IMG/VR virus record: IMGVR_UViG_3300045988_101018
Coordinates: 32,001-96,000 of that record
DNA: 64,000 bases
DNA from: a virus
Reading direction: 5' to 3' (one strand)
The notes under the pieces: model-generated
Seen by the model: the letters and a program-made list of their open reading frames with translations, nothing else
Databases searched by the model: none
What the model was told of the DNA's origin: nothing
Shown: positions 11,905 through 32,036 of the stretch, piece after piece
Numbering within the stretch: the first letter of the stretch is position 1
How the letters are laid out: each line of letters starts with the position of its first letter
Position numbers and translations under genes: made by a program

Positions 11905-11940
11905 ATACACTTATATTTATTGAATAATATGAGGGTGATT

Positions 11941-11984
11941 TGTCATCCTCTTTTTTATTATTGTTTGAAAGGAGGATGACAATG
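11941..11984 (+). promoter_or_regulatory. hairpin that sequesters the RBS of the giant gene
   Basis: tgtcatcctc (11941-11950) pairs perfectly with gaggatgaca (11972-11981). The second arm overlaps the GGAGG RBS and abuts the ATG at 11982. Confidence 0.3.
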
Positions 11985-14900: not shown

Positions 14901-17900
14901 GAGATGATTGCTCGCTATACACGTAACCAGATTTATGATGAGAACAAGCTTTTGACTCCTGAGTCTGTTGCCAATGCTTGTCCTAATATGCGTGTTATCA
15001 AGATTGAAGCTCCGCATTTCACCAATAACAAGAAGGACTTTGTAGCCAATACATCTTTCGAATGCATCTATAAGAATGGTGACGCAGTTCTTGACAACTG
15101 GAAGTTTGAGAATTGCTATCATTCTGGACAAGGCACTACATCAAATGAGTATGGTGCAGCTGGTCGTAACATCGACCTTATTGCTGGTTTTGATGGCAAG
15201 CATCAGGTGAGTAGCAAGATTGAGCTAGACCCAAATTATATTACAAAGCTTACGCTTGGCGATGGTAGTGTTGTTACTGACGGCTCTGGCAAGATTGCCC
15301 TTACTAGAACCTCTGTGCCTAATAACTGGTTCAACGTCAAAGTCAATATCGCAAGCTCCGAGATGGTGAACAACGCATATCTTCAGAAGAGATATAATGA
15401 TTATATCCCATATGCTACTCCTGCAACTCGTAGAGATTCTAAGATTAAGAACGACATGGAGTTCGTTAACTGCGTTGTGTTCATTAAGGAAAGCGACACA
15501 GATTTAACTACACACAGGGAATTCCAAGATACCTCATGGCATTTCTACGCCTTGGGCAACATCGGTGACTCTAAGAAGACAGATGTTACAAGAGCGTATG
15601 ACCCAGACGATATGAAAGAATTCGCTGTTGAGATTAGCGATAATACATTGCCTAATTCCATCTTCCAAACTGGCGTTGCCAATCCTGATGGTTCTATGAA
15701 ATATCCTATCACAAAAGCTGAATGGGTTGCTGGCAATACAGCATATGACGCTTTGTATAATGATTGGGATGGTTCGTTTGAGTTTAGGTACGATTGTTGC
15801 GGAGACTCAAAAGACGGCGAAGCTATTTCAAGCAGCGAGGAAAAGACTAAAATCAGAACGAAGAATAAACAGATTTGGCGAGACTTCTATGAGTTCGTAA
15901 TTACATCTACAGATGAGGAATTCAAGAACAATCTCAAGAATTGGTTTATTGTTGATTCTGCTACATACTTCTATCTATTCACGCTTAGATATACGATGAT
16001 AGACAACAGAAGTAAGAATACCTTCTGGCATTGGGCTAAGCATTATATTACAACGGCAGAAGCGGCAACGCTTGGCGATAAAGCTGCTTATTATACTGTT
16101 GACGATGAAGCCGCTGACATCAATAACGGATATCGTTTTGATCTCTGGGACTATGATAATGATAGCGCTTTGGGCATCAACAACAGCGGTGAGCTTACCA
16201 TGACTTATGGTAAGGAAGATACCGATTATCGCACAGATGGAGATAAGTCTTCTGGCTATATCTTCAATGCTGCTGAGTCCGTATTCTTCTGTCGTGTTCG
16301 TGACCTAATGGGTTCTGAGCTTCAGAAGATGTACGTAAGCCGTGAAAGTAAAAACTGTTGGAGCGCTTCTTCGCTTATCAATCAGTTCGATGAGAAACAG
16401 AATGAATGGTGCGAAGAGCTTTGGCGCGTTGACTATGTGCGTAAATACGAACGTCCTTATAAGGATGGCAACACTCGCTTCCTTGAGCAGATGATGAATG
16501 GCAAGAAGAAGTATCAGCGTAGACAGTTCGAGCGTGACCAAGAGATGTATATGGCAACTAAGTTCATTGGCAATACCGCTACATCTGACCAAATTATGTT
16601 TAGATGTAACACTCCAAAGGATGCCGTTGTCGCACCTAACTATACTCTTCATCTCACTCCATTTGCAGACATGTATCTGTCTGTAATGTTCGGCAATTCC
16701 TCTCCTACTCAGGTAAGGGCAAAAGCTGGCAAACAGTATGATATCACATGCCCATATGATACGATGGACGATACGGCTGTGCTTATCTATGGCGCATCTA
16801 GGATTCAGTCTGTCGGCGATGTGTCTGCTTGCTATATTCATGACAATGACTTCTCTAAGGCTGAAAAGCTAAAGGAGCTTATTATCGGTAACGCAACAGA
16901 AGGTTATTCTAACACCTTCTTGACGAACCTCGTTATCGGCAACAACAAGCTTCTTGAGAAACTTGATATCAGAAACACCCCAAACCTTGTAAGCAGCTTG
17001 GACTTCTCAAAGTGTATGAACCTTGAGGAGCTTTACGCTTCTGGCTCTGGTCTGAAAGGTGTTTTGTTTGCAAGCGGTGGCAGTATCAGGTTGGCTCAGT
17101 TACCTGACACCCTTACATCTATCAACATGAAGAATCTAATGTACCTAACCAATCTTTCTATTGCTGGGTACGATTCAATCTCTACGCTTATCATAGAGAA
17201 TTGTAATACGATAGATGTTAAAGATTTGCTTAATAAAGCTAAGAACGTCAACAGGGTTCGAATTACTGGTATCGATTGGAGTCTCGAAGACACGTCTCTT
17301 CTTGATAGAATCTACAAGATGTCTGGTATCGATAAGAACGGATACAATGTCGATAAGGCTGTGTTGGCTGGCACGGTACACGTTCCTATTGTAAAGCAGC
17401 AGCAGTTGTATGATTATCAGGAAGCATGGCCTGATTTAGAGATTATATTCAATACGATGGTTGAGCAGTTTATTGTCAAGTTCGTAAACTATGATGATGC
17501 TGTTCTTGATACGCAGTATGTCGATAAGGGCGGCAATGCCGTTGACCCGATAACGAGAGTAGACAATCCTATCGACACGCCCACCAAGCCAAGCTCCGTA
17601 AGCACAGACTTTACGTTTGAAGCATGGGATTTGCCGTTGACTGGCATCTTTAGTGATAGAACAATAAAGGCAACGTATAGCGAAACAACGAGACGCTATA
17701 CTATTAAGTATGTTTCCCGTGGTGTAACGCTTCAGGAGTCTACTGGCTTGTATGGTGAGAATGTTGAATACACTGGTGCAATTCCCACTTACACCCTTGA
17801 GGAAAACGCATATAAATATTATATGTTTGATAGGTGGGATAAGAGCGGTTTTATTGACGGAGATAAGACCGTAAATGCAATATTCGATACGTTTACATAT

Positions 17901-19127
17901 ACTCCAACTGCCCTTGCTGGCAAAGAGCTAAAGGATATGCGACCTGTTGAGGTTTATGCCATTACAAAACTAGGTCTTGATAATTCTGGTGCCAACATTC
18001 AGGCTGGTGACGCATATTCGTTTAATATGGGATATGATATTGATTATGATGATATCACATCGAAAACAGTTATCTCTGAGAAAACCGTTTTTGCTGGCAA
18101 GAATTATGTTGATACAGGAATCAAGCTTTTTGATACCGACAAAGATTTCGTATTGGCAATTGATTATAAATTCTTAAGCGGCACATCTGAAAAAAGCGTC
18201 CTTGCCCAATGTTTCCAGTCAAATGGTTCAAACGGATTTAAGTTGTGGTCTAATAGCGGAATCAAGATGAGCTGGGGTACGTCTTCGACTAGTGCTGGTT
18301 CTGTTGGCAGCCGTGACATGGTTGTACTTAGACACAAAAAAGGTGACAATAATATCTATGTATATTATTCTAACCTTAATGGCGGCGAACCCGATATTAT
18401 AAAGCTTGAAAGAACAAAGTCAACAATCATAGATAGCACTCTTGTATTCGGCTGTTCTAAGGCTGACGATGGCGCATATGAGAACTATGCTGTCGGCAAC
18501 GTGTATTGGAGCAAGATTTGGTACGAAGACCTTGGCGATGCAGTCTGCAAGAAGCTCGCTGGTTGGACGCATGAGAACATAGCGCTTGAGGTATGTAGTT
18601 TTAAAAAATACTATCTCAGCAATGAGCCGTCTAAGCGTTGTACGTTCAGCTTGCTTGCAAAGCACCTTCTTGACAGAAAGCGCGTATTTAATGAGAACGG
18701 AAGCAACGCTGGCGGTTGGACTAGCTCTGACCTGAATAGTTTCTTGAATACAAGATTCTATGAAGCATTGCCTGTAAAGATTAAACTTCTCATTAAGCAG
18801 GTCACGGTTAACTCTTCTATCGGCAATGGATCAAAAGAGCTTAGCGCATCTCAATGCTACGTCTCCATTCCTGCCGCTATCGAGCTTAGTAATTCATATG
18901 AAGTCAGCGGAGAGCCATTTGTTAACGAGGGTGAAATCATTTCTTATATGACATCTAATGATGCTAGGAAGCGTGCAGCTGTCGATGGCGATTACACGCC
19001 TTACTGGACTCGCTCACAGAACGTTTCGTATACAAATTATATCTATACGGTAAACGAGCAGGGCGATCTATATGGATTCAATACAGCTGGAACACAAAAC
19101 GGCGTATTGATTGAGATTTCTTTCTAA
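11982..19127 (+). CDS. giant (2382-aa) multi-domain tail fibre / host-adhesion protein
   Basis: ATG after gaaaggagg. The track ORF from 11940 has no RBS. Contains a Gly run, an LRR-like segment (17000-17300, L-x-x-L-x-L pattern) and a LamG/jelly-roll-like segment near the C-terminus (KLWSNSGIKMSWGT...VYYSNLNGGEP...VFGCSKADDG). Confidence 0.6.
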   Translation: MGLSFKDSLNKVKENNNARMINNNISPMSLDDDVSAYDDISLTSLDDESAVAAASDSLEGWTRSSNYLYYEEYSDDNISNVDDLKNVLIDKKQINLTQESNSQYIPFKMPRRYDGFDLLNTTIIIHYVNKDGYEDRSNVVNVYYNEEYIKFGWLVNKNATAVEGTLEFEIIASGVNSKGDEYVWKTKPNNQLSVLKSLAGNGAIEPDNTWITSFMTQVNEKVAEAQRYAQEAKTTVDGISDYADKAEASANKAQQVVDTAKTQLEGTVGDAVNNKVDAALSSYYTKKQVDDIVHNIDISDQLEEVKQQIANLDGLAKFNVTYDGSEMTFYNGEAVMKKIAITSNPTEEWTNNYTASIEGKINTAKSEIQSSADEKFATKASLNSANANISAVISTANANKENVTKLGDKVAKFEETVNGLDTSPRLTYDATYDEEQTYTLWEIQNEGKENEKKEPKAQFKIQGGGGGGGTSSILKITYITTTPVVATLDDKIIIKYNFSRTDSSGDVGGDGAATWKVDGSIVATNTAASGENSFDITDHITVGTHKVNLSIVDDAGSLVTKTWTVQRVDVRLESSFNDTFTYPIGKVSFDYTPYGAIQKRVHFVLDGKEIGTVDTTVSGVPLAYELPAQTHGAHLLEVYMTAEINGKAVESNHIIKDIIWYDSASDKPVIGCVKQKFTAKQYDTANIVYTVYDPSTEAPQVTLAVDGKTVSTLTIDSNTQTWQFKPSDVGTHTLTITCRDTVKTLTVTVEKLDIDVEPVTAGLAFDFNPVGKSNNDTDRLWSDGDVAMTVSDNFDWVNGGYQIDDNGDQYFGVKAGTTATISYNLFADDAKKNGKEFKLIFKTTNVAKSNATFLTCQSGTTSNVGLQMNVHEAYIKSSAKSLYIPYSEEDVIEWEFNINKDTDIPIVMSYEDGTPCRPMSYTGDYSFTQDSPVPITIGSPDCDVLIYRMKAYNTSLTSSAILSNFIADARTATEMIARYTRNQIYDENKLLTPESVANACPNMRVIKIEAPHFTNNKKDFVANTSFECIYKNGDAVLDNWKFENCYHSGQGTTSNEYGAAGRNIDLIAGFDGKHQVSSKIELDPNYITKLTLGDGSVVTDGSGKIALTRTSVPNNWFNVKVNIASSEMVNNAYLQKRYNDYIPYATPATRRDSKIKNDMEFVNCVVFIKESDTDLTTHREFQDTSWHFYALGNIGDSKKTDVTRAYDPDDMKEFAVEISDNTLPNSIFQTGVANPDGSMKYPITKAEWVAGNTAYDALYNDWDGSFEFRYDCCGDSKDGEAISSSEEKTKIRTKNKQIWRDFYEFVITSTDEEFKNNLKNWFIVDSATYFYLFTLRYTMIDNRSKNTFWHWAKHYITTAEAATLGDKAAYYTVDDEAADINNGYRFDLWDYDNDSALGINNSGELTMTYGKEDTDYRTDGDKSSGYIFNAAESVFFCRVRDLMGSELQKMYVSRESKNCWSASSLINQFDEKQNEWCEELWRVDYVRKYERPYKDGNTRFLEQMMNGKKKYQRRQFERDQEMYMATKFIGNTATSDQIMFRCNTPKDAVVAPNYTLHLTPFADMYLSVMFGNSSPTQVRAKAGKQYDITCPYDTMDDTAVLIYGASRIQSVGDVSACYIHDNDFSKAEKLKELIIGNATEGYSNTFLTNLVIGNNKLLEKLDIRNTPNLVSSLDFSKCMNLEELYASGSGLKGVLFASGGSIRLAQLPDTLTSINMKNLMYLTNLSIAGYDSISTLIIENCNTIDVKDLLNKAKNVNRVRITGIDWSLEDTSLLDRIYKMSGIDKNGYNVDKAVLAGTVHVPIVKQQQLYDYQEAWPDLEIIFNTMVEQFIVKFVNYDDAVLDTQYVDKGGNAVDPITRVDNPIDTPTKPSSVSTDFTFEAWDLPLTGIFSDRTIKATYSETTRRYTIKYVSRGVTLQESTGLYGENVEYTGAIPTYTLEENAYKYYMFDRWDKSGFIDGDKTVNAIFDTFTYTPTALAGKELKDMRPVEVYAITKLGLDNSGANIQAGDAYSFNMGYDIDYDDITSKTVISEKTVFAGKNYVDTGIKLFDTDKDFVLAIDYKFLSGTSEKSVLAQCFQSNGSNGFKLWSNSGIKMSWGTSSTSAGSVGSRDMVVLRHKKGDNNIYVYYSNLNGGEPDIIKLERTKSTIIDSTLVFGCSKADDGAYENYAVGNVYWSKIWYEDLGDAVCKKLAGWTHENIALEVCSFKKYYLSNEPSKRCTFSLLAKHLLDRKRVFNENGSNAGGWTSSDLNSFLNTRFYEALPVKIKLLIKQVTVNSSIGNGSKELSASQCYVSIPAAIELSNSYEVSGEPFVNEGEIISYMTSNDARKRAAVDGDYTPYWTRSQNVSYTNYIYTVNEQGDLYGFNTAGTQNGVLIEISF

Positions 19128-21972: not shown

Positions 21973-22054
21973 TATAACGACAATAGAATAAGAGTTTTAA
22001 GCGGGGAGGAAGAGGTGTATACACCTCTTCCCCACCCTTCTACCCTGCCGTTTA

Positions 22055-22100
22055 CCCTACAATTGTCAGAATAATAACAATTGTAGGGTAATTATTTTTT
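22055..22100 (+). terminator. rho-independent terminator (second of two hairpins after the coiled-coil gene)
   Basis: ccctacaattgt - loop - acaattgtaggg followed by taattatttttt. It is preceded by a 14-bp GC-rich palindrome at 22004-22034. Confidence 0.55.
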
Positions 22101-22196
22101 ATAAAAATTATTTCTCAACGTCTCTGTTTTTTATTAATAGATATCTAATGGAAAATAAAGACGTTGAGAAATCAACATATTGAAAGGAGTGGTCGC

Positions 22197-23279
22197 ATGG
22201 CAGAAACAAAGTTTCTTGACAGCATCGGCTTAACTTATCTACTTGAGAAGATAAACGCGAAGTTTTCAAAGATAGGTCATAAACATACCAAGGCGGACAT
22301 TACTGACTTCGCACATGACCACGATGGGAGATATTATACCGAAACCGAAATCGACACAAAGGTTTCCGCGCTAAACTCTGCGATTTCTGGTAAGGCCAAT
22401 TCTTCTCATAAACACGCTGCTGCTGATATTACGTCTGTGAATGCTTCTGCCATTACAGGTAGAATTGCTGCTGCTAATTTACCTAGTTACGTAGATGATG
22501 TGCTTGAGTATGCTGGAACATCTAAATTCCCTTCAACTGGTGAAGCTGGTAAGATTTATACTGATACAACGACAAACAAGATTTACCGCTGGGGCGGATC
22601 GTCTTATGTAGTTATTTCAGACACTATTGCCTTGGGTGAAACCAACTCTACCGCCTACCGTGGCGATAGAGGTAAAACTGCTTATAATCATTCGCAGATT
22701 ACAAGCGGAAACCCACATAAGGTAACTAAGTCCGATGTTGGTCTTGGCAGTGTTGACAATACTTCTGACGCAAATAAAAGTGTTAAGTACGCCAAAAGTG
22801 CAACGGCTAACAACCCGATAAAAACAACAGGTACGGGCGCTGCATATGCGGCAATTGTTGATGGCATTACGGCTCTTACTATTGGTGTTAAATTTACTAT
22901 GGTGCCACATGTTACTAGTACCACTAGGGCACCAACTCTTAATGTGAACAGTCTTGGTGCTAAAAGCATTAGAATGAGACTAACAAGCTCTACTACGGCT
23001 ACAATTCAGCTTACAAGTGCTAGTTTCTTAACCGCCAATAAGCCCGTAAATGTTATGTATGACGGGACTTATTGGGTAATTGATGACTTTGCACAGCCTG
23101 ACGTAAACAGTCTATATGGCACTGTGCCGATAGAAAAGGTTCAAGCTCATATTGCAAACACTACAATTCACATCACTGCCGCTGAGCGTGCTAAGTGGAA
23201 TGCCAAAGCAGATATTACCATTGGCACTGCTGAACCAACTTCAAGTACGTCTGGAATTTTTTATATTCAGACAAATTAA
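22197..23279 (+). CDS. tail fibre protein with H-x-H His-box motifs (paralogue of 32524..33345)
   Basis: ATG after aaaggag. Motifs GHKHTKADITDFAHDHDG and SSHKHAAADITS. About 110 aa (VMVPHVTSTTRAPTLNVNSLGAKSIR...YDGTYWVIDD...LYGTVP) are shared with 32524..33345. Confidence 0.5.
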   Translation: MAETKFLDSIGLTYLLEKINAKFSKIGHKHTKADITDFAHDHDGRYYTETEIDTKVSALNSAISGKANSSHKHAAADITSVNASAITGRIAAANLPSYVDDVLEYAGTSKFPSTGEAGKIYTDTTTNKIYRWGGSSYVVISDTIALGETNSTAYRGDRGKTAYNHSQITSGNPHKVTKSDVGLGSVDNTSDANKSVKYAKSATANNPIKTTGTGAAYAAIVDGITALTIGVKFTMVPHVTSTTRAPTLNVNSLGAKSIRMRLTSSTTATIQLTSASFLTANKPVNVMYDGTYWVIDDFAQPDVNSLYGTVPIEKVQAHIANTTIHITAAERAKWNAKADITIGTAEPTSSTSGIFYIQTN

Positions 23280-23344
23280 TAGACGTTATTCTGCTATAAT
23301 ATAGCAAAGTAAAAGTTCTTTTATTTAAGAGGAGGTGTAGAATT

Positions 23345-23773
23345 ATGAAGATGTATTTAGGAGATGTACCAGTCAAGGCATTATATACGCATACCGATAC
23401 TGATGAGGGCGACATTACTGCGCCAGATATGCAATCTGGCATGATTGCTTTTGCCAAAGGTGTAAAATTGACTGGCACTGGAAAGGCGTTTGCCTTTGTT
23501 TCTTATGGACAAATGTCAACAAATAAAGCTTGGCCTGTTCCATCTATTATCAATATTATTGAAGTGTCTTCATTGACGTATCCTGTAAAAACGAATATAG
23601 CACTAAGTTCTATGAAAAACACAAATTTTTCTACAATCCAAAAAATTGGGGCTGTTACTATTAACGGAACAGCGTATGACATCACAGCGCAAGTTTCCAA
23701 TAATATGCTAACAGTAGGATGTTCTAAGGATATAGGTCTTGAAGTATTCTGCGGAAGGGATGAACACGTATGA
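23345..23773 (+). CDS. hypothetical protein
   Basis: RBS aagaggaggt upstream. 142 aa. Confidence 0.45.
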   Translation: MKMYLGDVPVKALYTHTDTDEGDITAPDMQSGMIAFAKGVKLTGTGKAFAFVSYGQMSTNKAWPVPSIINIIEVSSLTYPVKTNIALSSMKNTNFSTIQKIGAVTINGTAYDITAQVSNNMLTVGCSKDIGLEVFCGRDEHV

Positions 23774-23979
23774 GTGTAAAAAGACTACAGTATAATTATG
23801 CACAGATTGAACTTGACACTGGTTTGTGCGTTGGTTGCATGACTTGTTCTTATGAGATTACTATGGAAGGCTTTATTGCCGTTCCTAGTGCAAGTAATGA
23901 TTATGTTGGTAAGTATTATCATGATGGATCTTGGTACGAGGATGCAGAATTCACTATTCCTTGGACTTTTGAAGGTTAA
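23770..23979 (+). CDS. hypothetical small Cys-containing protein
   Basis: ATGA overlap with the upstream gene. Motif C-V-G-C-M-T-C. Confidence 0.35.
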   Translation: MSVKRLQYNYAQIELDTGLCVGCMTCSYEITMEGFIAVPSASNDYVGKYYHDGSWYEDAEFTIPWTFEG

Positions 23980-24005
23980 TTAAAAACTAAATACATAACC
24001 TTATT

Positions 24006-24046
24006 AGGGGTGTGAGTATTTCGCTTACGCCCCTTTTTATTTTTTA
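24006..24046 (+). terminator. rho-independent terminator
   Basis: ggggtgtgag...cttacgcccc imperfect stem followed by tttttatttttt. Confidence 0.5.
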
Positions 24047-24078
24047 TTATATAAAAATAAAAATTTGGAGGTGATTAT

Positions 24079-24177
24079 ATGGCATTACCATACGTAAGCG
24101 TGTCAGCAAGCAGCTCTGGCAATAGATATATCACTGTGACTGGTAGGATGAACTGGTTCTTCAGCAGAATAAAATGA
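24079..24177 (+). CDS. small ORF (32 aa) with a strong RBS
   Basis: ggaggtgattat then ATG. Too short to assess. Confidence 0.2.
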   Translation: MALPYVSVSASSSGNRYITVTGRMNWFFSRIK

Positions 24178-24256
24178 TAATTTTAAATAACAATTGAATA
24201 ATACGTGTACTGGGCATAGTGGGTTATTTATATTCTCCATGCCTTTGTTATCGAAC

Positions 24257-24270
24257 AAAAAAAAAAAAAA
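24257..24270. repeat. homopolymeric A14 tract upstream of the Listeria-Bacteroides repeat gene
   Basis: Fourteen consecutive A at 24257-24270, directly followed by TGA and then the TTG start at 24289. ORF 24194..24382 reads through the tract in a different frame. Confidence 0.8.
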
Positions 24271-24288
24271 TGAAAGGCGGTTGGTAAA

Positions 24289-25248
24289 TTGGCGAGTAAT
24301 AGCAATACTAAAAATAGCGGCAAGGGCGGCGTTACAACTGCGGTCAGCGCATGGTATGATAGCGAAACTGGGAATACAGTAAGACTTTGCATAAGTACGA
24401 GCGTTAAGGGAAGCTCTAATGGCCCGTGGGGCTATGGCGTAGTCGGGCAGTCTGGCTACGAAGGGAATGGAGCAAACTGGAAAGAGGTCGGTCGCGGAGT
24501 TTTTAACTATGCCAACACTGTCGTTAATGGTACAGCATATTTTACAGTCGGAAAAACCCATAGCGGATGGACTGCGAGCTGTTGGGCAAAGTCGTGGGGC
24601 GAAGCGGCTGGTGGATATGGCGCATACATTGCCAGCGATGATGTTCGCTGTAACGTATGGATCCCAGCAACGTCTAGATACACTCTTTCCTATAATGCCA
24701 ACGGTGGCTCGGGCGCTCCTTCGAGCCAAACAAAATGGCATGGCGAAACATTAACGCTCTCCTCTGCTAAGCCAACAAGAGACGGATATGAATTTGCTGG
24801 TTGGGGTACGTCTGCCACTGATACTGGCGTTAAATATGCTGCTGGCGGACAATATACAGGAAATGCAAGCATCACACTGTATGCTATCTGGACTAACGCT
24901 GCAAAGATGACTCTTGCATATAATGCCAACGGTGGCTCGGGCGCTCCTTCGAGCCAAACACATTTGATAAATACAACCTCTAAAATATCTGGTGCTAAGC
25001 CCACTAGAGACAAGTATGTGTTTTTAGGGTGGTCTACGAGCAGTTCTGCCACAAGTGCAACATATATCGCAGACGGGCAGTACACAAACAACAATTTTAC
25101 CAATGGCGCAACCGTCACGTTGTACGCTGTGTGGCTGAAGAAGAGTCCGAGTATATATATAAATTCATCAGAACATAGTTTCAAATCGGTTTGGGTAAAT
25201 GTGCCTTCTGGCAAGAGCCTTAAATCAATCTGGTTCAAGACTGGTTAG
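24289..25248 (+). CDS. Listeria-Bacteroides (Flg_new-type) repeat-containing surface-binding protein
   Basis: Two copies of Y-N-A-N-G-G-S-G-A-P-S-S-Q-T...A-K-P-T-R-D-G-Y-x-F-x-G-W-x-T-S...Y...T-L-Y-A-(I/V)-W, matching the Flg_new/List-Bact repeat consensus. Confidence 0.55.
   Translation: MASNSNTKNSGKGGVTTAVSAWYDSETGNTVRLCISTSVKGSSNGPWGYGVVGQSGYEGNGANWKEVGRGVFNYANTVVNGTAYFTVGKTHSGWTASCWAKSWGEAAGGYGAYIASDDVRCNVWIPATSRYTLSYNANGGSGAPSSQTKWHGETLTLSSAKPTRDGYEFAGWGTSATDTGVKYAAGGQYTGNASITLYAIWTNAAKMTLAYNANGGSGAPSSQTHLINTTSKISGAKPTRDKYVFLGWSTSSSATSATYIADGQYTNNNFTNGATVTLYAVWLKKSPSIYINSSEHSFKSVWVNVPSGKSLKSIWFKTG
24691..24960 (+). repeat. two identical 42-bp direct repeats (24691-24732 and 24919-24960) encoding the Flg_new repeat core
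   Basis: tataatgccaacggtggctcgggcgctccttcgagccaaaca occurs twice verbatim. Confidence 0.7.
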
Positions 25249-25267
25249 TTGATGGGAGGTAATTGAG

Positions 25268-25627
25268 TTGGCTGACGAAGTTGAATTAAGTGAAGTTGAT
25301 TACAAGCTTAAATATACAGGCGAGGAAGTCGATAGTCTCCTTGCGTTTATAAAAGATTTTAAAAATATCTACAACAAGATGAAGCGCGTTCAGGCTGGAT
25401 GTGAAGCTATCTCTACGACTACGGCTGGTGCAGATGTGATTAAGGTTATAGATTTCAGTGTTGCCTTTAACGGTGTGCCGAATGTTATGCTCATACCTAC
25501 TTTTCTAAATGATAAAACGGCTAAGGCAAAAGTTCTTAATATCACGTCTTCTAATTTCAAGGTTCAGGTAGTAGGAAATGATAACGATGCCACAACCAAC
25601 TTGTATTGGATAGCTACTGAACAGTAA
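25268..25627 (+). CDS. hypothetical protein
   Basis: TTG start after gggagg. 119 aa. Confidence 0.4.
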   Translation: MADEVELSEVDYKLKYTGEEVDSLLAFIKDFKNIYNKMKRVQAGCEAISTTTAGADVIKVIDFSVAFNGVPNVMLIPTFLNDKTAKAKVLNITSSNFKVQVVGNDNDATTNLYWIATEQ

Positions 25628-25674
25628 ATCTTGTTTGATTATATATCAAAGTTTGAATGAAAGGAAGTAAAAAT

Positions 25675-26118
25675 ATGAGTTGGGTTAATCTTAATGATGT
25701 TTATGTAAATCAGACTGGCGGAACTATTGCTGGCGATCTATCTGTAAACGGCGCTTTGACGGTAAATGATGGCAAGGGAACGAACACCACATACAATGTT
25801 GCCAATGAAATTACAACGTTGCGGGATTCCGTATCCCAATGTAAACCGCAATATAAAATTTATGCTGGGTCGAGGGTAATAAACATCACACAATCTTGGG
25901 GTACGCTATTTACAAAAGACGAATTTATATCCTCTTTTGGACGCGAATTTAATAATTCAAGAGACAGCATATCAGTTATGAATGGAGATGCGAAAGCCAA
26001 CAATATTACCGTTTTTGGTGTTTCGTATTATCCACAAGACGGCAAGTTGCTTGTTGCATTATCGGCGAACGGCGGCGGTGCTTTTAGGATCAATTATATC
26101 GTAGTTCTTGCTGAGTAG
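25675..26118 (+). CDS. shufflon expression locus: 56-aa constant N-terminus, then site-encoded D-S-V-S-Q, then the currently fused C-terminal cassette (cassette 0)
   Basis: ATG after aaaggaag. An in-frame copy of the 13-bp site in reverse orientation (gggattccgtatcccaa, 25823-25839) encodes D-S-V-S-Q. This is the only copy preceded by an RBS, a start codon and an N-terminal domain. The N-terminus carries a GGTIAGDLSVNGALTV beta-strand-like motif. Confidence 0.6.
   Translation: MSWVNLNDVYVNQTGGTIAGDLSVNGALTVNDGKGTNTTYNVANEITTLRDSVSQCKPQYKIYAGSRVINITQSWGTLFTKDEFISSFGREFNNSRDSISVMNGDAKANNITVFGVSYYPQDGKLLVALSANGGGAFRINYIVVLAE
25823..25839 (-). repeat. recombination site R0 (reverse orientation) inside the expressed gene
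   Basis: Its reverse complement, ttgggatacggaatccc, matches the core of R1-R8. Confidence 0.75.
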
Positions 26119-26152
26119 ACGTTATTGGCATACGCATATAAGAAATCATGCG

Positions 26153-26488
26153 CTAGTTGATATACCATGAACAAATACCCCTGTTAATAGCACCAGATAT
26201 CGAAGCAGCAACTTGAAACCCAATTGCTCCGTTTGGATGGACATAGCCATATGCGCATACGTTGAGTATGTAGCCATTGGCATTTGTCACACATGATGGC
26301 GAATAAATTGTATGGTCTGGTCGAAGATTTTCTGGAATGACATGTTCTATTCCCCAATACTCATTTGTTGATTGAGAAACAGTCCATACGAGTATACACG
26401 TGTATCCAACACGCCGAATATGAACGTATGAGGAACTACCCGGCGCTCCGTATAGCACAAGCGTATCGTCTTGGGATACGGAATGCTA
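26153..26488 (-). other. silent C-terminal cassette A (starts at the R1 forward arm with H-S-V-S-Q, ~105 codons)
   Basis: The minus-strand frame opens at the TAG inside R1 and reads CAT-TCC-GTA-TCC-CAA before the unique sequence. No RBS or ATG. Converges on the expressed gene, 35 bp apart. Confidence 0.6.
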
Positions 26489-26508
26489 AGTATGGGTTTC
26501 CGTATCCC
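26471..26508. repeat. site R1, a palindromic double site (forward arm 26471-26488 ttgggatacggaatgcta; reverse arm 26498-26508 ttccgtatccc)
   Basis: Seen directly. Cassettes diverge from the two arms. Confidence 0.75.
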
Positions 26509-26843
26509 TGACAAAAGACACATGCAAAGGAGCCAACGGCTGGGTTGTACAAACTGGCGCAATTACACGTACAGAAAATTGTGTAACCATGTGGGTAGAT
26601 GTTGTTGCTGGAAATAGCGCGAATAAGAATGTAAATACAACGTTTGCGACAATGCCGTCTGCTTTCGCGCCTAGCACATATAATATTGAACTTCCAGTAT
26701 TAGGGTTCACTACAACGTCTTATCCAATTAGCTTTTGGATAATAATCACTACAAGTGGAGAAATCAAAATTAAGCAATATGTACTACCGTCTAACACAGT
26801 TCTAGGCCAAATTAAATGTTGTTGTACGTATTTAAAAATTTAA
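26498..26843 (+). other. silent cassette B (plus strand, starts at the R1 reverse arm with V-S-V-S-L)
   Basis: The frame opens after the TAA inside R1 (gctaag) and reads GTT-TCC-GTA-TCC-CTG. It contains track ORF 26589..26843 and ends with TAA immediately before R1b. Confidence 0.55.
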
Positions 26844-26860
26844 TAGCATTCCGTATCTCA
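26844..26860 (-). repeat. site R1b (reverse orientation, 1 mismatch: tagcattccgtatctca)
   Basis: Seen directly. Confidence 0.7.
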
Positions 26861-27221
26861 GATTAAATTATTGTGGAGCGGGTCTGTGTACGGCGGCGGT
26901 TCATTTGTCGTACCAGAGCTAAAAGAATATACATTTGTAGAAGTGGTTACTTCAAATGCTGATGAAAATCATTGGGGCGTATTATGTTTTAATGACATGA
27001 ATGCATTAAAATCTACCGATGATGCATATGGCATGTGGGTATACGCAGATATACACGCTGGCTTGGATTACATAGTATCAATAAAATCAAAATTGGAAAT
27101 ACAGAAAGACTTAAAGACTGTGAAATTCACAGCTGGATATGCATTTAACGTAATGAAAGAAAACACCGTTATTACTTCAACGCAAAAACTTCGTATCGTT
27201 GCTGTGTATGGCGTTAGATAG
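26844..27221 (+). other. silent cassette B' (plus strand, starts at R1b with H-S-V-S-Q-I-K-L-L-W-S-G)
   Basis: TAG-CAT-TCC-GTA-TCT-CAG then an open frame that includes track ORF 26871..27221. Confidence 0.6.
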
Positions 27222-27227
27222 GCTGTA

Positions 27228-27581
27228 TTATAGATACAACATTCCAGATATCTTACGCACTCCATATGCATACATGCCGTTATAGTATGATGCATTTAAA
27301 GTCAGTTTTCCATCTGGGTCAAGCTCAACAAATACTGAAAATTGCGCAGAAAAATCTGCAACTCCTACAAAATATACATTTGTTTTTGGTCTATATTTTG
27401 ATGGCAATGATATGGACACTGACTTATATCCATTTCCACTTGCAGACATAAAGCCAGAAACCCTGTCACATATAACCTTTATCGCGTTTTGACTTGGAAT
27501 ATACACGACATTTATATCAAATGTTGCACCAACAAGGTCAACGCTATAGTCGCCAATTTTCTCTTGGGATACGGAATGCTA
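27228..27581 (-). other. silent cassette C (minus strand from R2, H-S-V-S-Q-E-K-I-G-D)
   Basis: Extends track ORF 27228..27506 up to R2. Converges on B', 6 bp apart. Confidence 0.6.
27564..27581 (+). repeat. site R2 (ttgggatacggaatgcta)
   Basis: Seen directly. Its last 3 nt (cta, read as TAG on the minus strand) form the stop codon of cassette D0. Confidence 0.75.
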
Positions 27582-27905
27582 TTTTAACTTTCCTATAACA
27601 GTTTCCTGTACGTACATTCCTACATTAGACATAGATGTTGCAGATGAAAGATAGCATCTAACGTCTGTTACATTCTTAATTTCGACATAATGTCCAATCC
27701 ATAATCCATTTCCAGTGACGGGATTAACATCTGCATATAAGATAGAGTCGTATATATCAGGGGCGTTAAACGCATAAGAACAAAAGTACAATGAACCAAA
27801 TAGAGCTGTTGCAGAAATGGTTTTATGAACTTTTCTTGTTGACAGAGCATAGCCTATTCCAAAATTAAAAATAGTCCAATCTCCATTTTGGGATACGGAA
27901 TACTA
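27579..27905 (-). other. silent cassette D0 (minus strand from R3, Y-S-V-S-Q-N-G-D-W)
   Basis: Extends track ORF 27579..27791. The stop codon lies inside R2. Confidence 0.6.
27888..27905 (+). repeat. site R3 (ttgggatacggaatacta)
   Basis: Seen directly. Confidence 0.75.
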
Positions 27906-27910
27906 GGTTA

Positions 27911-28161
27911 TTAAACTTCAATATAATAAACGATAACATTTATTTTTCTATTTGAATATTTCCCTGCGCTGCCGTCCCATGCCATAAGACGAACTGTTCT
28001 ACCCTGTTGTGCGTCAGTTCCCGTATGAAACGCATATCTCGCATCGTACATCCCACCAATTCCTATTGGAATCTGCCTTGCGTTAAGTCCCGTTTCGAAA
28101 TATCCATTAGGGTCTGTAGTTGTATCTATTTGTTTTGTTTTTATAATATGGGATACGGAAT
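27911..28161 (-). other. silent cassette D (minus strand from the R4 forward arm, N-S-V-S-H-I-I-K-T-K)
   Basis: Open frame of about 83 codons ending with TAA at 27911-27913. Not in the ORF track because it has no M. Confidence 0.5.
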
Positions 28162-28187
28162 TCCCATGTTTAGTATTCCGTATCCCA
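28149..28187. repeat. site R4, a palindromic double site (tgggatacggaat - tcccatgtttagt - attccgtatccca)
   Basis: Seen directly. Nearly identical to R6. Confidence 0.75.
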
Positions 28188-28527
28188 AATCAGTAATAGA
28201 GTATTGCTTTGGAGTGGAACGGCTGGCAAAGGTGTGAAAATTACGATTGACAGCGACTATTCATTTAAAGAATTCAAATCATTTTATTGCCTTACAAGTA
28301 TCGATAAAACAATCGGATTGCCGCTTGTAAGAAACTCTGGAATACAACAAGACCAGCATTTACACGGCATTACTGGATGGGATGATGGTAATACAACATA
28401 TACGCTTGTTGGGCTAATTAGAATAAATACAGAGACAACTGCGACCATTACGTCTATATCAAAACACGATATAAGTGGCAATGGTGGAATTGCTGGCAGC
28501 TTACTTAAACTATGGGGATGTTACTAA
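28175..28527 (+). other. silent cassette E (plus strand from the R4 reverse arm, S-V-S-Q-I-S-N-R-V-L-L-W-S-G)
   Basis: Extends track ORF 28204..28527. Shares the LLWSG motif with B'. Confidence 0.6.
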
Positions 28528-28530
28528 TCG

Positions 28531-28881
28531 TTACTTCCACATGCCTTTGACGTTATATTCTATAAATGCCACTGTAGTAGTATTGTTATATTTTATATCT
28601 TGGTTTAACACATATACTCCAGTGTCTACTAGCCCAATAGAAGCTCCTGTACCAGATAATACGTAAACGCCCTTTTGTCCAGAGCTATATATTGCAGAAG
28701 CGCCCTTATACAATAAACTAGTTAAAGGAAATGGAAAATCAACAGCGGGTGCAGTAACACTACCAATCCCTTTTATTTCTTTTCCTCCCCAAAATTCTGC
28801 AAGACCGCTATTCCATTTGCGATAAAACCAGATTCCAGATGTTCCCTGTGCGACAATATAGTCGTGGGATACGGAATGCTA
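28531..28881 (-). other. silent cassette F (minus strand from R5, H-S-V-S-H-D-Y-I-V)
   Basis: Extends track ORF 28531..28713 to R5. Converges on E, 3 bp apart. Confidence 0.6.
28865..28881 (+). repeat. site R5 (tgggatacggaatgcta)
   Basis: Seen directly. Its last 3 nt provide the stop codon of cassette G. Confidence 0.75.
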
Positions 28882-29144
28882 TAACGGTATAGCAATCCAA
28901 TTTATAGTACATTGTATGTGTTGATATTCTTGGTGACTATTCCAAACGTCCATAGTAAACCCAGTTGATGTTTTGTTATACACCATTTCCGTAACAGAAG
29001 GCCATCCCCATGTTTCAATTTTTGGAAACTGAAGAGATGTGATAACAACATAATCTGTTTCGATTGGTGTATTAAATTTAACCTGAACAACGTTATCATT
29101 TATGTTTGTTGTCATGGTAACAACACCTCTTTGGGATACGGAAT
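28879..29144 (-). other. silent cassette G (minus strand from the R6 forward arm, Y-S-V-S-Q-R-G-V-V-T)
   Basis: Contains track ORF 28879..29115. The stop codon is the TAG inside R5. Confidence 0.6.
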
Positions 29145-29170
29145 ACCCATGTTTAGTATTCCGTATCCCA
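29131..29170. repeat. site R6, a palindromic double site (ttgggatacggaat - acccatgtttagt - attccgtatccca)
   Basis: Seen directly. Confidence 0.75.
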
Positions 29171-29501
29171 GAGCGAATGGAAAGTCCTCAAGGGCAACAT
29201 CGGCTCCAACCATCTGGCGTACAAAATCTGCAATGGCATCTGCTATCTGAGCATCGATTGCGGCGGAGACTGGAGCATCAAGGCCAACGCGAAGTCCACT
29301 GTTGACATCATTACCATGCCAGACGAAGCATTGCCATCCACGTGGATTGTTTCAGCTGCTTGTTACCCAAAGGGCGGCAATTCAGACTTCGTTTGCGGTG
29401 TGACATTAAACAGGAAGACTAAGAAGCTATCCGTATGCAACTACTCGAACACGGCAACCAACTACTATTCCGTCACTTTCTGCTATCCAGTCAAAAATTA
29501 G
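29158..29501 (+). other. silent cassette H (plus strand from the R6 reverse arm, S-V-S-Q-S-E-W-K-V)
   Basis: Extends track ORF 29316..29501. Confidence 0.55.
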
Positions 29502-29504
29502 CAG

Positions 29505-29795
29505 TTATATGACATTCTTTTTGTATAGAATTACGAATGTAATTTTAAAATCATGCCATGTGCCTTTGTTTGTTACCTCGTTATTTTGAATGCTTGCATA
29601 TGCAGTGTCGTTATCGCGCAGACCAAATTGCGTGATAATACATGAACCTGTGTGGTTTGACTTCACCGTGGTAAGGCATACAGGCGTATAGCCATCGTAT
29701 TTCACGCTGGTGTCAAAGTCGGCAACCGCGCCATACCTTAATGATTTGGCGGCAGACGTGAAGCTCTTTGTCGTGTACTGGGATACGGAATGCTA
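29505..29795 (-). other. silent cassette I (minus strand from R7, H-S-V-S-Q-Y-T-T-K)
   Basis: Extends track ORF 29505..29705. Converges on H, 3 bp apart. Confidence 0.6.
29779..29795 (+). repeat. site R7 (tgggatacggaatgcta)
   Basis: Seen directly. Confidence 0.75.
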
Positions 29796-29797
29796 TG

Positions 29798-30102
29798 TTA
29801 AAAAATAACAAAGGTTGCCCTTACGCTTCTGTTGCCAGACTGTAAATATAAATATCCATTTTGATAATAGGCAGTTGCGTGTAGGCTTATGTCAGAAACA
29901 TAATAGCAATCTACACAATCGTCAGGCCGTGTATTATTTTTAATAAAATGAGATATGGGAAACACTGTAGAACATAGCGGTCTATTATTGTAAACGCATA
30001 TTAAACAACCCATTTTTGTTGTGGGTAAATTGACTTTAAATGATTCGTATGAAGTAGAACCGCTTGTTTTTGCCACCTCTACAGGAGCTTGGGATACGGA
30101 AT
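29798..30102 (-). other. silent cassette J (minus strand from R8, D-S-V-S-Q-A-P-V-E)
   Basis: Extends track ORF 29798..30076. The frame is closed by TAA at 30128-30130, so it is not fused to the recombinase. Confidence 0.55.
30089..30102 (+). repeat. site R8 (ttgggatacggaatcccc), the closest match to R0 and the outermost inverted partner
   Basis: Seen directly. Lies 6 bp from the recombinase stop codon. Confidence 0.75.
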
Positions 30103-30108
30103 CCCCAG

Positions 30109-31005
30109 TTAGCTTATAGCCCTTATTTTAGACTTTCTAGCTTTGTCGAATATCAGCTTCTCAACAGCCGCCTGAGCTTCTTGGCAGATTGTTTTACGAG
30201 GAACGATATAGTGATTATATGCTGTGCTAATCTCTGTATGACCAAGCATCATGGCAACGGTTTCGATGCCAACTCCTGCTTCAATTGCAAGTGTAGCCCA
30301 TGTATGACGCATGTTAGTCATAGATACATATGGTACACCCATCTTCTTACACTGTGACTTGATAGCACGAGCTGCTTTATCGGGAGATACATCACCGATA
30401 AGAAGCCCATGTCCTTTAATCTGCTTTAGGCGCTGACGTGCAAACTTAGGTAGATAGCAAGACCTAGTAGACTTTTCTGTCTTAGTTTTTACTGTGATGA
30501 TTTGACCGTTCACATATTGGCGCGACTTGCTAATACGCACCTCGCCAGTCTTAAGATTGATATCAGACCATTCGAGAGCGCAAGCTTCGCCACGGCGCAA
30601 ACCAAGAGTTACAGCACAGATAGTTACGGCTTCAGCCCAATGACCCCACATGCCGCGAAGCATCTCTGATACCTCTTGTGCGTCTAAAACATCTGGGCGA
30701 TAAGGCTTGGGGTGGTTTACTTCTATGTATGCGGTTGGATCGATAATATGTAGGCGCTTCTTGCGAATCCACCAACGGATGATTTGGCGAATACATTTAA
30801 ACGCTTTCTCTCCTGCGCCAGCTTTTTCAAATGAGTCTACCCACTCCTGCAAATCATCAGGGCAGATATCTTCAATCTCACATTCGCCCCATCGCGGAAG
30901 TACATGAAGACGCATTGATGAGTCGTATCCAGCTATGGTGGATGCCGCCATCTTCTGTGTTTTCTCGGGTAGATAATGCTGTTCATAGATGTCGATAAGT
31001 TTCAT
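30109..31005 (-). CDS. tyrosine site-specific recombinase (298 aa), candidate shufflon invertase
   Basis: R (LGLRRGEA), H-x-x-R (MRHTWATLA), LGHT and the Y of STAYNHY in canonical order. Sits directly beside the site array. Confidence 0.75.
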   Translation of the reverse strand: MKLIDIYEQHYLPEKTQKMAASTIAGYDSSMRLHVLPRWGECEIEDICPDDLQEWVDSFEKAGAGEKAFKCIRQIIRWWIRKKRLHIIDPTAYIEVNHPKPYRPDVLDAQEVSEMLRGMWGHWAEAVTICAVTLGLRRGEACALEWSDINLKTGEVRISKSRQYVNGQIITVKTKTEKSTRSCYLPKFARQRLKQIKGHGLLIGDVSPDKAARAIKSQCKKMGVPYVSMTNMRHTWATLAIEAGVGIETVAMMLGHTEISTAYNHYIVPRKTICQEAQAAVEKLIFDKARKSKIRAIS

Positions 31006-31021
31006 TTTTTAAATCCTTTCA

Positions 31022-31082
31022 TTGAAAAAATCCCACGCAATTTAACTCGAAATGAGTATATAACTTGCGTGGGATTTTTTCA
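31022..31082. promoter_or_regulatory. perfect 19-bp inverted repeat (ttgaaaaaatcccacgcaa ... ttgcgtgggattttttcaa, 23-nt loop) in the divergent promoter region
   Basis: Seen directly. Lies between the recombinase start (31005) and the divergent plus-strand gene (31200). Confidence 0.5.
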
Positions 31083-31199
31083 ATGGTGCATATAAATTTA
31101 TTTATATATAAATTAAAAGTTCTACAATTTTGAATATTAGAAAACACATTTTATGTTACAATATTAACCATATTTATAAACTCTAATGACCAAGGAGGT

Positions 31200-32036
31200 A
31201 TGTCTATGTACGAAGTGCCTTGTTTAAATCTTAACGGAGACACAATTAATAGATTCTATCAATGGGACATAGACCAGAAGATAGTTATCGACCTTAATGG
31301 ATGCGATGAGAGATATCTTCAGAATCCACCTGAAGTACATTTCTCTAATTCAAGTAGGAAAGAAGCGTTGGTTGTTCGCTCTACTGTAAAATATAGTGGT
31401 GATGATGTAGCTGTTCAAGATGACAGTGTGGCAACAATGCACGCAGGAGATATCATTATTGCCGATATTCCTAATATTCTATTGCAGGAGCCTTATCCTC
31501 TACTTGTCTATGTATATTTAACTGACGCAGATGATTCGTCTTCTCAGAAAACAATTCTATATAGTGAGATCCCTGTTCGTAAACGTGCAAAGCCAAGCGA
31601 TTATCTCTACGTTGAGAATATTACTCGCATTACTGCCGAGATGATTAAAAAAGAAATTGAATCTAGCACCGAGACGGCTAGAACAAATGCCATTAACGAG
31701 ATTAATAACGTTAAAACAGAGTCTATAGCTACTGTTACAGATACAAGAGATGCTGCTGTAAATACCATAACACAGACTAAGACAAACGCCGTTAGCACTG
31801 TTGATGAAGCCAAAGAAGGCTTTATCACCACTGGCAACGCCCTTGTTAATACCGCCACTGAGATTAAGAATAATACTCAGAAGACATATGATAATGCCGT
31901 TTCTGTTGCAAATAAGACTCAGCAGACTATTGAGACAAACATAAACACGCTCATCACAAAGAACGGCGTGTATCTTAAGACTGTTAACGATGGAAGCGGC
32001 AATGCAAATCTTGCCATTCTCGTAAACCAATCATAA
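31200..32036 (+). CDS. hypothetical structural protein (fibre-module associated)
   Basis: RBS aaggaggt upstream. The C-terminal motif VNDGSGNANLAI is shared with the next ORF. Confidence 0.45.
   Translation: MSMYEVPCLNLNGDTINRFYQWDIDQKIVIDLNGCDERYLQNPPEVHFSNSSRKEALVVRSTVKYSGDDVAVQDDSVATMHAGDIIIADIPNILLQEPYPLLVYVYLTDADDSSSQKTILYSEIPVRKRAKPSDYLYVENITRITAEMIKKEIESSTETARTNAINEINNVKTESIATVTDTRDAAVNTITQTKTNAVSTVDEAKEGFITTGNALVNTATEIKNNTQKTYDNAVSVANKTQQTIETNINTLITKNGVYLKTVNDGSGNANLAILVNQS

Follow-up and report, generated by a model that had tools for sequence, protein, structure and literature searches.

How can one phage gene carry many alternative endings? The question is raised by a stretch of viral DNA of 64,000 nucleotides (nt), positions 32,001 to 96,000 of the IMG/VR record IMGVR_UViG_3300045988_101018. 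This whole stretch is referred to as the window, and all coordinates are counted from its first letter. A gene for a protein of 147 amino acids (aa) holds in its reading frame a 17-nt motif, here called R0, whose core recurs at the head of twelve further reading frames that have no start codon ahead of it. We propose that R0, at 25823-25839, is the expression-locus crossover site of a Rin-type multiple-inversion shufflon, an assignment that we regard as very probably correct.

The crossover site and its silent cassettes

The 17-mer GGGATTCCGTATCCCAA is found at 25823-25839 on the forward strand without mismatches, and the one further exact match is in reverse complement, at 30089-30105, the terminal site next to a recombinase gene. 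When up to three mismatches are allowed there are 12 copies, where 0.08 would be expected by chance, and this number was reached in none of 100 shuffles. Across the 64 kilobases (kb) there are 13 copies of the 9-nt core TTCCGTATC, always inside 25827-30101, with five cores in forward orientation (25827, 26498, 26849, 28176 and 29159) and eight in reverse (26475, 27568, 27892, 28152, 28868, 29135, 29782 and 30093). The full 11-nt core is kept in 12 of these 13 sites; the remaining one (core 26849-26857) has the variant right arm TCTC next to an unchanged 9-nt core, and the pattern TTCCGTATC(C/T)C describes all 13.

Relative to R0, eight sites are inverted and four direct, the same numbers as in a preliminary description of this DNA. 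That description had also named R0 and the terminal site, its R8, as the best-matching inverted pair, bracketing an array of 4.25 kb. The pair is indeed an exact reverse complement and does enclose the array, but the far site does not end at 30102: the match extends as an 18-mer over 30089-30106, and the array from 25823 to 30105 measures 4283 base pairs (bp).

Across 158 unique sites from the window and its relatives the consensus reads T(A/G)GnA-TTCCGTA-TCCCA(A/G), with the G at position -3 conserved in 97%. This consensus is an imperfect inverted repeat (TGGGA/TCCCA) that flanks an asymmetric 7-bp spacer, which is the usual core-site anatomy for tyrosine recombinases. R0 can be divided accordingly into the left arm GGGA (GCGGGA), the spacer TTCCGTA and the right arm TCCCAA, while the left arm of the terminal site, TGGGGA, recurs at 10 unique sites in related loci. 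In the window, its relatives and canonical Rin loci alike, a GGGA left arm is found at both fixed ends and TAG at the silent sites. R0 and the terminal site form the best-matching pair because both possess this more symmetric arm. Such symmetric end sites may represent full sites that organise synapsis and thereby bias the reaction towards inversion.

Closely spaced cores form an arrangement of their own. The head-to-head pairs 26475/26498, 28152/28176 and 29135/29159 of the window are spaced by 14-15 nt and combine one GGG-type with one TAG-type arm. In the related loci L002 (7973/7982) and L007 (8704/8713, both in window orientation) two head-to-head cores directly adjoin and form a perfect palindrome, GGGATACGGAATTCCGTATCCC, in which either one would act as the left arm of the other.

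What sets R0 apart from the other twelve sites? The preliminary description had placed it in frame within the 147-aa gene and singled it out as the only copy with an upstream expression context, and both statements hold. Read from the ATG at 25675, the site is translated as T-L-R-D-S-V-S-Q-C-K-P, and R0 alone is preceded by an open frame that has a start codon and a Shine-Dalgarno-like motif. Motifs of this kind precede 19 of the 29 long open reading frames (ORFs) in the window, compared with a background of 5.6%. A second in-frame ATG lies at 25657, but the start at 25675 is favoured because the opening residues M(S/A/T)WVNLN are kept in diverged relatives.

Each of the 13 cores opens a frame of 82-123 codons in the TCC-GTA-TCC register, and together these frames tile 25.8-30.1 kb with no leftover. 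None of the 12 silent cassettes, numbered c1 to c12 in the table, has an in-frame start upstream of its junction, and all 12 silent sites have an in-frame stop 2-16 codons on their 5' side. In eight of them this stop lies exactly two codons upstream, in seven cases a TAG belonging to the left arm TAGnA and in one a TAA. Among the silent cassettes, c9 alone (28879-29115, reverse strand) has a plausible internal start, an in-frame ATG at codon 9 with GAGG 8 nt on its 5' side; it is called as a 78-aa gene in related contigs.

The consequences of such a layout can be explored in silico. In a token model of the array, inversion was allowed between any two oppositely oriented cores, which yields 40 one-step states. 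Eight cassettes reach R0 by a single inversion, whereas c2, c3, c7 and c10 (cores 26498, 26849, 28176 and 29159) need two. This is the division into single-step and two-step cassettes that the preliminary description had proposed, and its expectation that the products keep the frame was borne out as well: over more than 20,000 states a cassette in coding orientation always stood behind R0.

Are the predicted products found in nature? Among the 120 protein matches listed, 10 of the 12 predicted fusions of the constant part with a silent cassette appear in independent assemblies as called genes of the same length at 87-99% identity. In the same 120 matches there is no full-length fusion for c9 and none for c10. 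An exact look-up, which covered the 10 silent cassettes other than c2 and c3, found the c4 fusion alone; that of c10 was not among its hits. In addition, the contig L154 is colinear with the predicted product of an inversion between R0 and c4 over 1500 nt without gaps. The cassette family of c3 occupies the expression site in L002.

Table. Features of the array and its surroundings, in window coordinates. Cassette lengths are counted after the junction; P numbers denote the called gene that corresponds to the predicted fusion, with the identity to it.
Feature	Position	Strand	Remarks
Shine-Dalgarno-like motif AAAGGAAG	25660-25667	+	7 nt 5' of ATG 25675
Expressed gene, 147 aa	25675-26118	+	Constant N-terminus of 51 aa (25675-25827) and cassette c0 of 96 aa
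R0, probable expression-locus crossover site	25823-25839	+	Homology blocks with relatives stop 6-8 nt from core
c1, 109 aa	26153-26487	-	Site 26471-26487; P0090, 98%, 160/160 aa
c2, 114 aa	26494-26843	+	Site 26494-26510; direct to R0, two inversions; P0112, 97%
c3, 123 aa	26845-27221	+	Core 26849-26857 (TCTC); direct to R0; P0068, 95%
c4, 115 aa	27228-27580	-	Site 27564-27580; exact 166-aa predicted fusion, P0121
c5, 106 aa	27579-27904	-	Site 27888-27904; P0105, 87%
c6, 82 aa	27911-28164	-	Site 28148-28164; P0114, 95%
c7, 116 aa	28172-28527	+	Site 28172-28188; direct to R0; P0070, 96%
c8, 114 aa	28531-28880	-	Site 28864-28880; P0103, 99%
c9, 87 aa	28879-29147	-	Site 29131-29147; relatives of cassette in L001, L005, L006
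c10, 113 aa	29155-29501	+	Site 29155-29171; direct to R0
c11, 94 aa	29505-29794	-	Site 29778-29794; P0083, 98%, at expression site of L022 and L023
c12, 100 aa	29798-30105	-	Terminal site 30089-30105; P0078, 92%
Tyrosine recombinase, 298 aa	30109-31005	-	Stop codon 4 nt from terminal site
Promoter-like match TTGAAA-17-TATACT	31055-31083	-	Best in region, 5' of recombinase start; consensus scan, weak evidence

The recombinase and the rearrangements in related phages

The gene that closes the array encodes a tyrosine recombinase of 298 aa, which matches the Pfam family Phage_integrase (PF00589, 2.2e-16) and phrog_1 (1.5e-45). A scan against NCBIfam returned Xer and integron-integrase models only, with the Xer-type matches below the cut-off. 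The protein consists of a SAM-like core-binding and a catalytic domain and has no arm-binding domain. Its reading frame is intact, and the box I Arg, the hairpin Lys, the box II R-H, the His of LGH and the C-terminal Tyr are conserved across the family. Recombinases of this Rin-like type are tied to site arrays in more than 60 loci.

A second tyrosine recombinase is encoded in the window at 35669-36865 on the reverse strand. It comprises 398 aa with SAM-like, central and catalytic domains, the canonical layout of an integrase, and the phage may accordingly be temperate or plasmid-like. The presence of this separate integrase, together with the linkage to arrays in the loci just mentioned, rules out that the 298-aa recombinase is itself the phage integrase.

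Related loci allow us to follow the array across genomes. Using the recombinase as query retrieved 19 loci from IMG/VR, mostly on contigs of 66-133 kb, and further contigs were fetched from ENA and Logan via the fusion proteins. In all loci that span the region, 4-14 sites lie between the constant gene part and the recombinase. The cassettes are drawn from a broad repertoire: 123 of them from 16 low-GC (guanine-cytosine) loci cluster into 51 families, and across 14 loci the expression site is held by 11 different families. A protein search with the 147-aa product finds 412 homologues in public data, many of which match the first ~55 residues only, with 98-100% identity and at lengths of 133-174 aa.

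The same cassette families occur in either orientation among relatives, and three tail-to-tail pairs, c0/c1, c7/c8 and c10/c11, change orientation together. For example, L005 and L008 have the whole c7/c8 pair inverted, and c10/c11 is inverted in L022, where c11 is the expressed cassette. When the window is compared by blastn with five relatives, the ends of homology blocks inside the array all fall within 21 nt of a core, most of them within 11 nt. Even close genomes, with recombinases 99% identical, differ in arrangement, and the breakpoints lie at cores.

A number of relatives depart from the standard layout. Some contain a second, internal site of the R0 type with the left arm GCGGGA (L013 8569-8625; L019 8661 and 9247; L011 542, in window orientation). 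In L019 and L011 ~47 aa of the constant region are duplicated along with it, and in L013 it follows a cassette truncated at 11 codons. These sites could stem from a genuine duplication or illegitimate event, or else from two isomers joined into a chimera during assembly. L012 and L015, whose recombinases are 77-85% identical, show the core TTCCATATCCC (junction S-I-S) in place of TTCCGTATCCC at all of their 10-12 sites; here every site has changed in concert, alongside divergence of the recombinase and a constant part that also differs (MAWVNLNTIYATKSEV...). Moreover, the independent contigs L001, L004, L010, L011, L022 and L023 end inside the array or within tens of nucleotides of it, for instance 20 nt past a core in L023 and 53 nt past the recombinase in L010. 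Taken as a plain list of cases, these ends look like what an assembler would produce where the locus varies within the sample.

Mechanism, product and competing explanations

How would such a locus work? In the mechanism that we propose, a small tail-associated protein would combine a fixed N-terminus of 51 aa with any one of 13 alternative C-terminal modules (82-123 aa), of which twelve start-less ones would be stored in both orientations between R0 and the recombinase gene. The 298-aa recombinase would pair two inverted sites and exchange strands within the asymmetric 7-bp spacer, and the DNA between the paired sites would be flipped; both its role as the catalyst and the positions of cleavage are predictions. 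Whenever R0 takes part, a new module would be brought in frame behind ...T-L-R-D-S-V-S, while inversions between internal sites would re-orient modules for later use. If the shufflon is active in this strain today, as we infer, virions of one population would bear different predicted receptor-binding tips and could hedge against variation of the host surface.

Some observations weigh against this interpretation. The first His of the HxxR motif of the recombinase is replaced (Thr/Asn-type here), though the same is true for the whole Rin family. The three contigs examined, out of six similar places, come from three samples, encode the identical 147-aa protein and have exactly the arrangement of the window. 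Switching may be rare, or one isomer may dominate the assemblies. The rearranged genomes also differ by point mutations (83-99% identity), and the differences in arrangement therefore reflect evolutionary time rather than observed switching. Finally, the array contains 38 pairs of sites in direct orientation, between which deletion would have to be avoided, and its size varies from 4 to 14 sites in relatives.

Among the competing explanations, the one that survives best accepts the inversion and questions the product: the variable protein may not bind a receptor but form another distal tail or decoration part, a lectin-like accessory, or a module for anti-defence or immune evasion. The 147-aa protein has no family in Pfam, PHROG or NCBIfam and its structural matches are weak. 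Its constant part is also much shorter than the 164-169 aa of canonical Rin loci, and several other tail-fibre-like genes flank the locus. The gene itself sits in a tail block, where its neighbours on both sides match tail-fibre PHROGs and where it is preceded by genes for a Listeria-Bacteroides-repeat protein and an H-type-lectin-like protein. An AlphaFold2 (AF2) model based on an alignment of 54 sequences, with a predicted local distance difference test score (pLDDT) of 82, leaves the N-terminus poorly defined, places a helix at residues 42-54 and folds residues 60-146 confidently into a β-sandwich head. The helix spans the junction and holds the residues R-D-S-V-S. A second model, of a c3-type fusion with an alignment of 8 sequences, reached a pLDDT of 48 and was discarded. 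A receptor-binding role of the product is predicted, and we consider a different function unlikely.

A relic array is a still less probable explanation. In this scenario the system worked in ancestors and is now fixed or nearly inactive, and the silent cassettes are a stored library that changes over evolutionary time, partly by deletion, duplication or homologous exchange during co-infection. It would fit the identical arrangement of the three contigs, the site with the mutated right arm (TCTC, core 26849), the variable array size, and the degenerate sites and truncated cassettes in L011 and L019. However, a decaying array is difficult to reconcile with 12 of 12 silent frames intact over their 82-123 codons, with the full 11-nt core at all sites but one, or with a recombinase whose frame and catalytic residues are preserved. 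Genomes with nearly identical recombinases are rearranged at cores, and canonical Rin shufflons have been seen to switch in sequencing reads (PMC6109161).

The last alternative, in which the repeats are simply a conserved N-terminal motif of small paralogous genes without site-specific recombination, could draw on the several cassettes that are called as small independent genes and on the internal ATG of c9 with its GAGG, but it is virtually ruled out by cassettes that lack an in-frame start ahead of the motif and mostly have a TAG directly before it, by a conservation at the DNA level that extends over 17 nt and includes synonymous positions and non-coding left arms, by the reordering and reorientation of cassettes between genomes exactly at the motif, and by its linkage to a dedicated recombinase across the family.

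The preferred explanation, a shufflon with R0 as its expression site, can be placed in the context of the surrounding genes. A scan for promoters and terminators gave fewer matches than shuffled sequences, and no clear promoter was found for the expressed gene. A strong terminator-like hairpin at 24006-24034 on the forward strand, with 12 pairs followed by a T-run, lies just 5' of the three-gene group 24289-26118. The expressed gene probably shares a transcript with the tail genes lying between it and this hairpin, and may be the last of a short operon that begins after the hairpin. Two positions upstream of the shufflon, the Listeria-Bacteroides-repeat gene (24289-25248) encodes 319 aa, compared with 297 aa in relatives. 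For the segment 24111-24677, which includes its 5' part, blastn finds no counterpart in relatives whose flanking DNA matches at 90-95% on either side, and from this pattern it looks like a replaced module. Further upstream of the tail-fibre block, the ORF 11940-19127 on the forward strand encodes 2395 aa and is presumably a tape-measure or giant tail protein; its homologue in L026 has a match to DUF6273.

Other products encoded in the window, whose GC content is 39%, include DNA polymerase III alpha, NrdD, a RecD-like helicase and an endolysin-like domain. For the polymerase the nearest match (50% identity) comes from the 132.5-kb Clostridioides phage-plasmid pCD1602_4, followed by large Bacillus siphophages. 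These relatives, the base composition and the strong use of Shine-Dalgarno motifs make a Firmicutes host likely, as far as sequence features can tell. Neither a megablast search of 22000-32000 against INPHARED phages nor a blastn search of 25000-31100 against PLSDB plasmids gave a match, and no tRNAs were found in the window.

The Rin family and other inversion systems

Can the array be assigned to a known type of shufflon? The Rin shufflon was described in prophages of Bifidobacterium breve and B. longum (Mavrich et al. 2018, PMC6109161). It combines a tyrosine invertase without arm-binding domain with a receptor-binding protein that has a constant part of 168 aa and five variable C-termini of 95-100 aa; its site, rix, comprises 11 bp, TTCCCTAACCC (PMC6109161). 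The system has also been reported from Eggerthella lenta clade 1 prophages (PMC8778435).

For a comparison with canonical loci, these were fetched from IMG/VR by the published rix core alone, as TAGNNTTCCCTAACCC. This gave 48 loci with at least three cores, and in 41 of them lies a recombinase gene whose product shares 35-41% identity with the window enzyme over residues 1-286 (E values of 1e-50 to 1e-64), while in the other seven the array is cut by the end of the locus. The 3' end of the recombinase gene lies 6-26 nt from a core in 39 of the 41. In the rix-core loci the constant part measures 164-169 aa, silent sites bear TAG arms, and GGGA stands at either fixed end. Along the same lines, a tblastn search of INPHARED finds Siphoviridae sp. 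ctl617 (38%, 8e-53) and Bifidobacterium phage PMBT6 (34.5%, 9e-50) as closest to the window recombinase, compared with ~1e-16 for generic phage integrases. Both phages share the layout, with sites of the form TAGC(A/T)TTCCGTAACCC and the expression site GGGATTCCGTAACCC.

The features of sequence and layout that define the Rin type are present in the window. An arm-less tyrosine recombinase of XerD-like size lies at one end of the array, and it is homologous to those that flank canonical rix arrays, here the rix-fetched loci. A short asymmetric repeat stands ahead of every cassette and inside the expressed gene, and a single constant N-terminal part, at the end opposite the recombinase, is combined with start-less cassettes of low identity in both orientations. 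The site TTCCGTATCCC agrees with TTCCCTAACCC at 9 of 11 positions and is read in the same frame, as S-V-S here and S-L-T in Rin, and the mutual identity of the 13 C-termini, 13-29%, resembles the 6-30% found in Rin. The differences concern scale and carrier. The window has 13 sites and alternative C-termini where Bb423phi1 has 5, and a constant part of 51 aa instead of ~168 aa; its carrier is a genome of ~125-130 kb with 39% GC, compared with a prophage of ~35-40 kb and 60% GC in an Actinobacterium.

The closest Rin-like loci outside the low-GC relatives come from Coriobacteriia (Collinsella metagenome-assembled genomes and Enteroscipio rubneri, L016-L018). They have the identical core TTCCGTATCCC, a recombinase 71-73% identical and the same layout, but a GC content of 0.60-0.64 and a constant region of at least 251 aa that is unrelated to MSWVNLN... 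The recombinase identity in the Coriobacteriia loci L016, L018 and L029-L031 is unusually close given the gap in base composition. An identical core and a recombinase of 71-73% identity across this gap suggest a recent transfer of the module, and comparative sequence data of this kind suggest that the invertase moves together with its sites between phage lineages. A bolder reading, to which we give slightly less than an even chance, is that the Rin module is a horizontally mobile host-range generator. It would have crossed between high-GC Actinobacteria prophages and low-GC phages of ~125-130 kb, docked there on an unrelated 51-aa anchor, and grown to the largest phage cassette library that we found described, with 13 heads per genome and at least 51 families in 16 genomes.

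The mechanism is already known from the Rin shufflon of Bifidobacterium and Eggerthella prophages, and the locus is a large further member. It extends this type of tyrosine-invertase shufflon beyond prophages of Actinobacteria to widespread, large, low-GC gut phages, in which one genome offers 13 interchangeable tail-protein heads out of the larger pool of families. For virome studies this matters in two ways: such loci break or scramble assemblies, and one phage "species" may show many adsorption specificities, which bears on host prediction and the inference of phage-host networks. The GGGA ends and the TAG arms of silent sites further provide a handle on how an arm-less tyrosine recombinase prefers inversion over deletion, a question already raised for Rin.

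Other inversion systems share parts of this design. The shufflon of plasmid R64 (Komano 1999, as cited in PMC13418256) is driven by Rci, a tyrosine recombinase of ~384 aa with a C-terminal domain, and acts on pilV, which encodes the tip adhesin of a conjugative pilus. It contains seven sfx sites and four segments; the sites are 19 bp long and asymmetric, since only one arm beside the 7-bp spacer is conserved. As in the window, multiple inversion by a tyrosine recombinase decides which C-terminal segment a protein responsible for binding specificity receives. The target differs, pilV there and a gene of the phage tail region here, as far as the two can be compared by description.

In phages, inversion by Gin, Cin, Pin and Min (of Mu, P1, e14 and p15B) likewise swaps the C-terminal part of a tail fibre. 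The same holds for Enterobacter phage FR-phi, whose Gin-type shufflon produces three isoforms that differ in tropism (PMC13418256), and Min and FR-phi resemble the window in having several segments. All of these rely on serine invertases, in contrast to the tyrosine enzyme of the Phage_integrase family found here. A serine-invertase system of the Min type can be rejected for the array, since the enzyme adjacent to it is a tyrosine recombinase, though no scan for serine recombinases covered the remainder of the window. The BV01-like phages of Phocaeicola vulgatus have a tail-fibre shufflon of 1.7 kb with three cassettes and six isoforms (PMC13596623), which differs in its 10-bp motif, TGGGAGAACT. 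What is new in the window is the number of 13 heads in one genome, against 5 in Rin, three cassettes in the BV01-like phages and three isoforms in FR-phi, together with the short constant part of 51 aa and a low-GC lineage of carriers.

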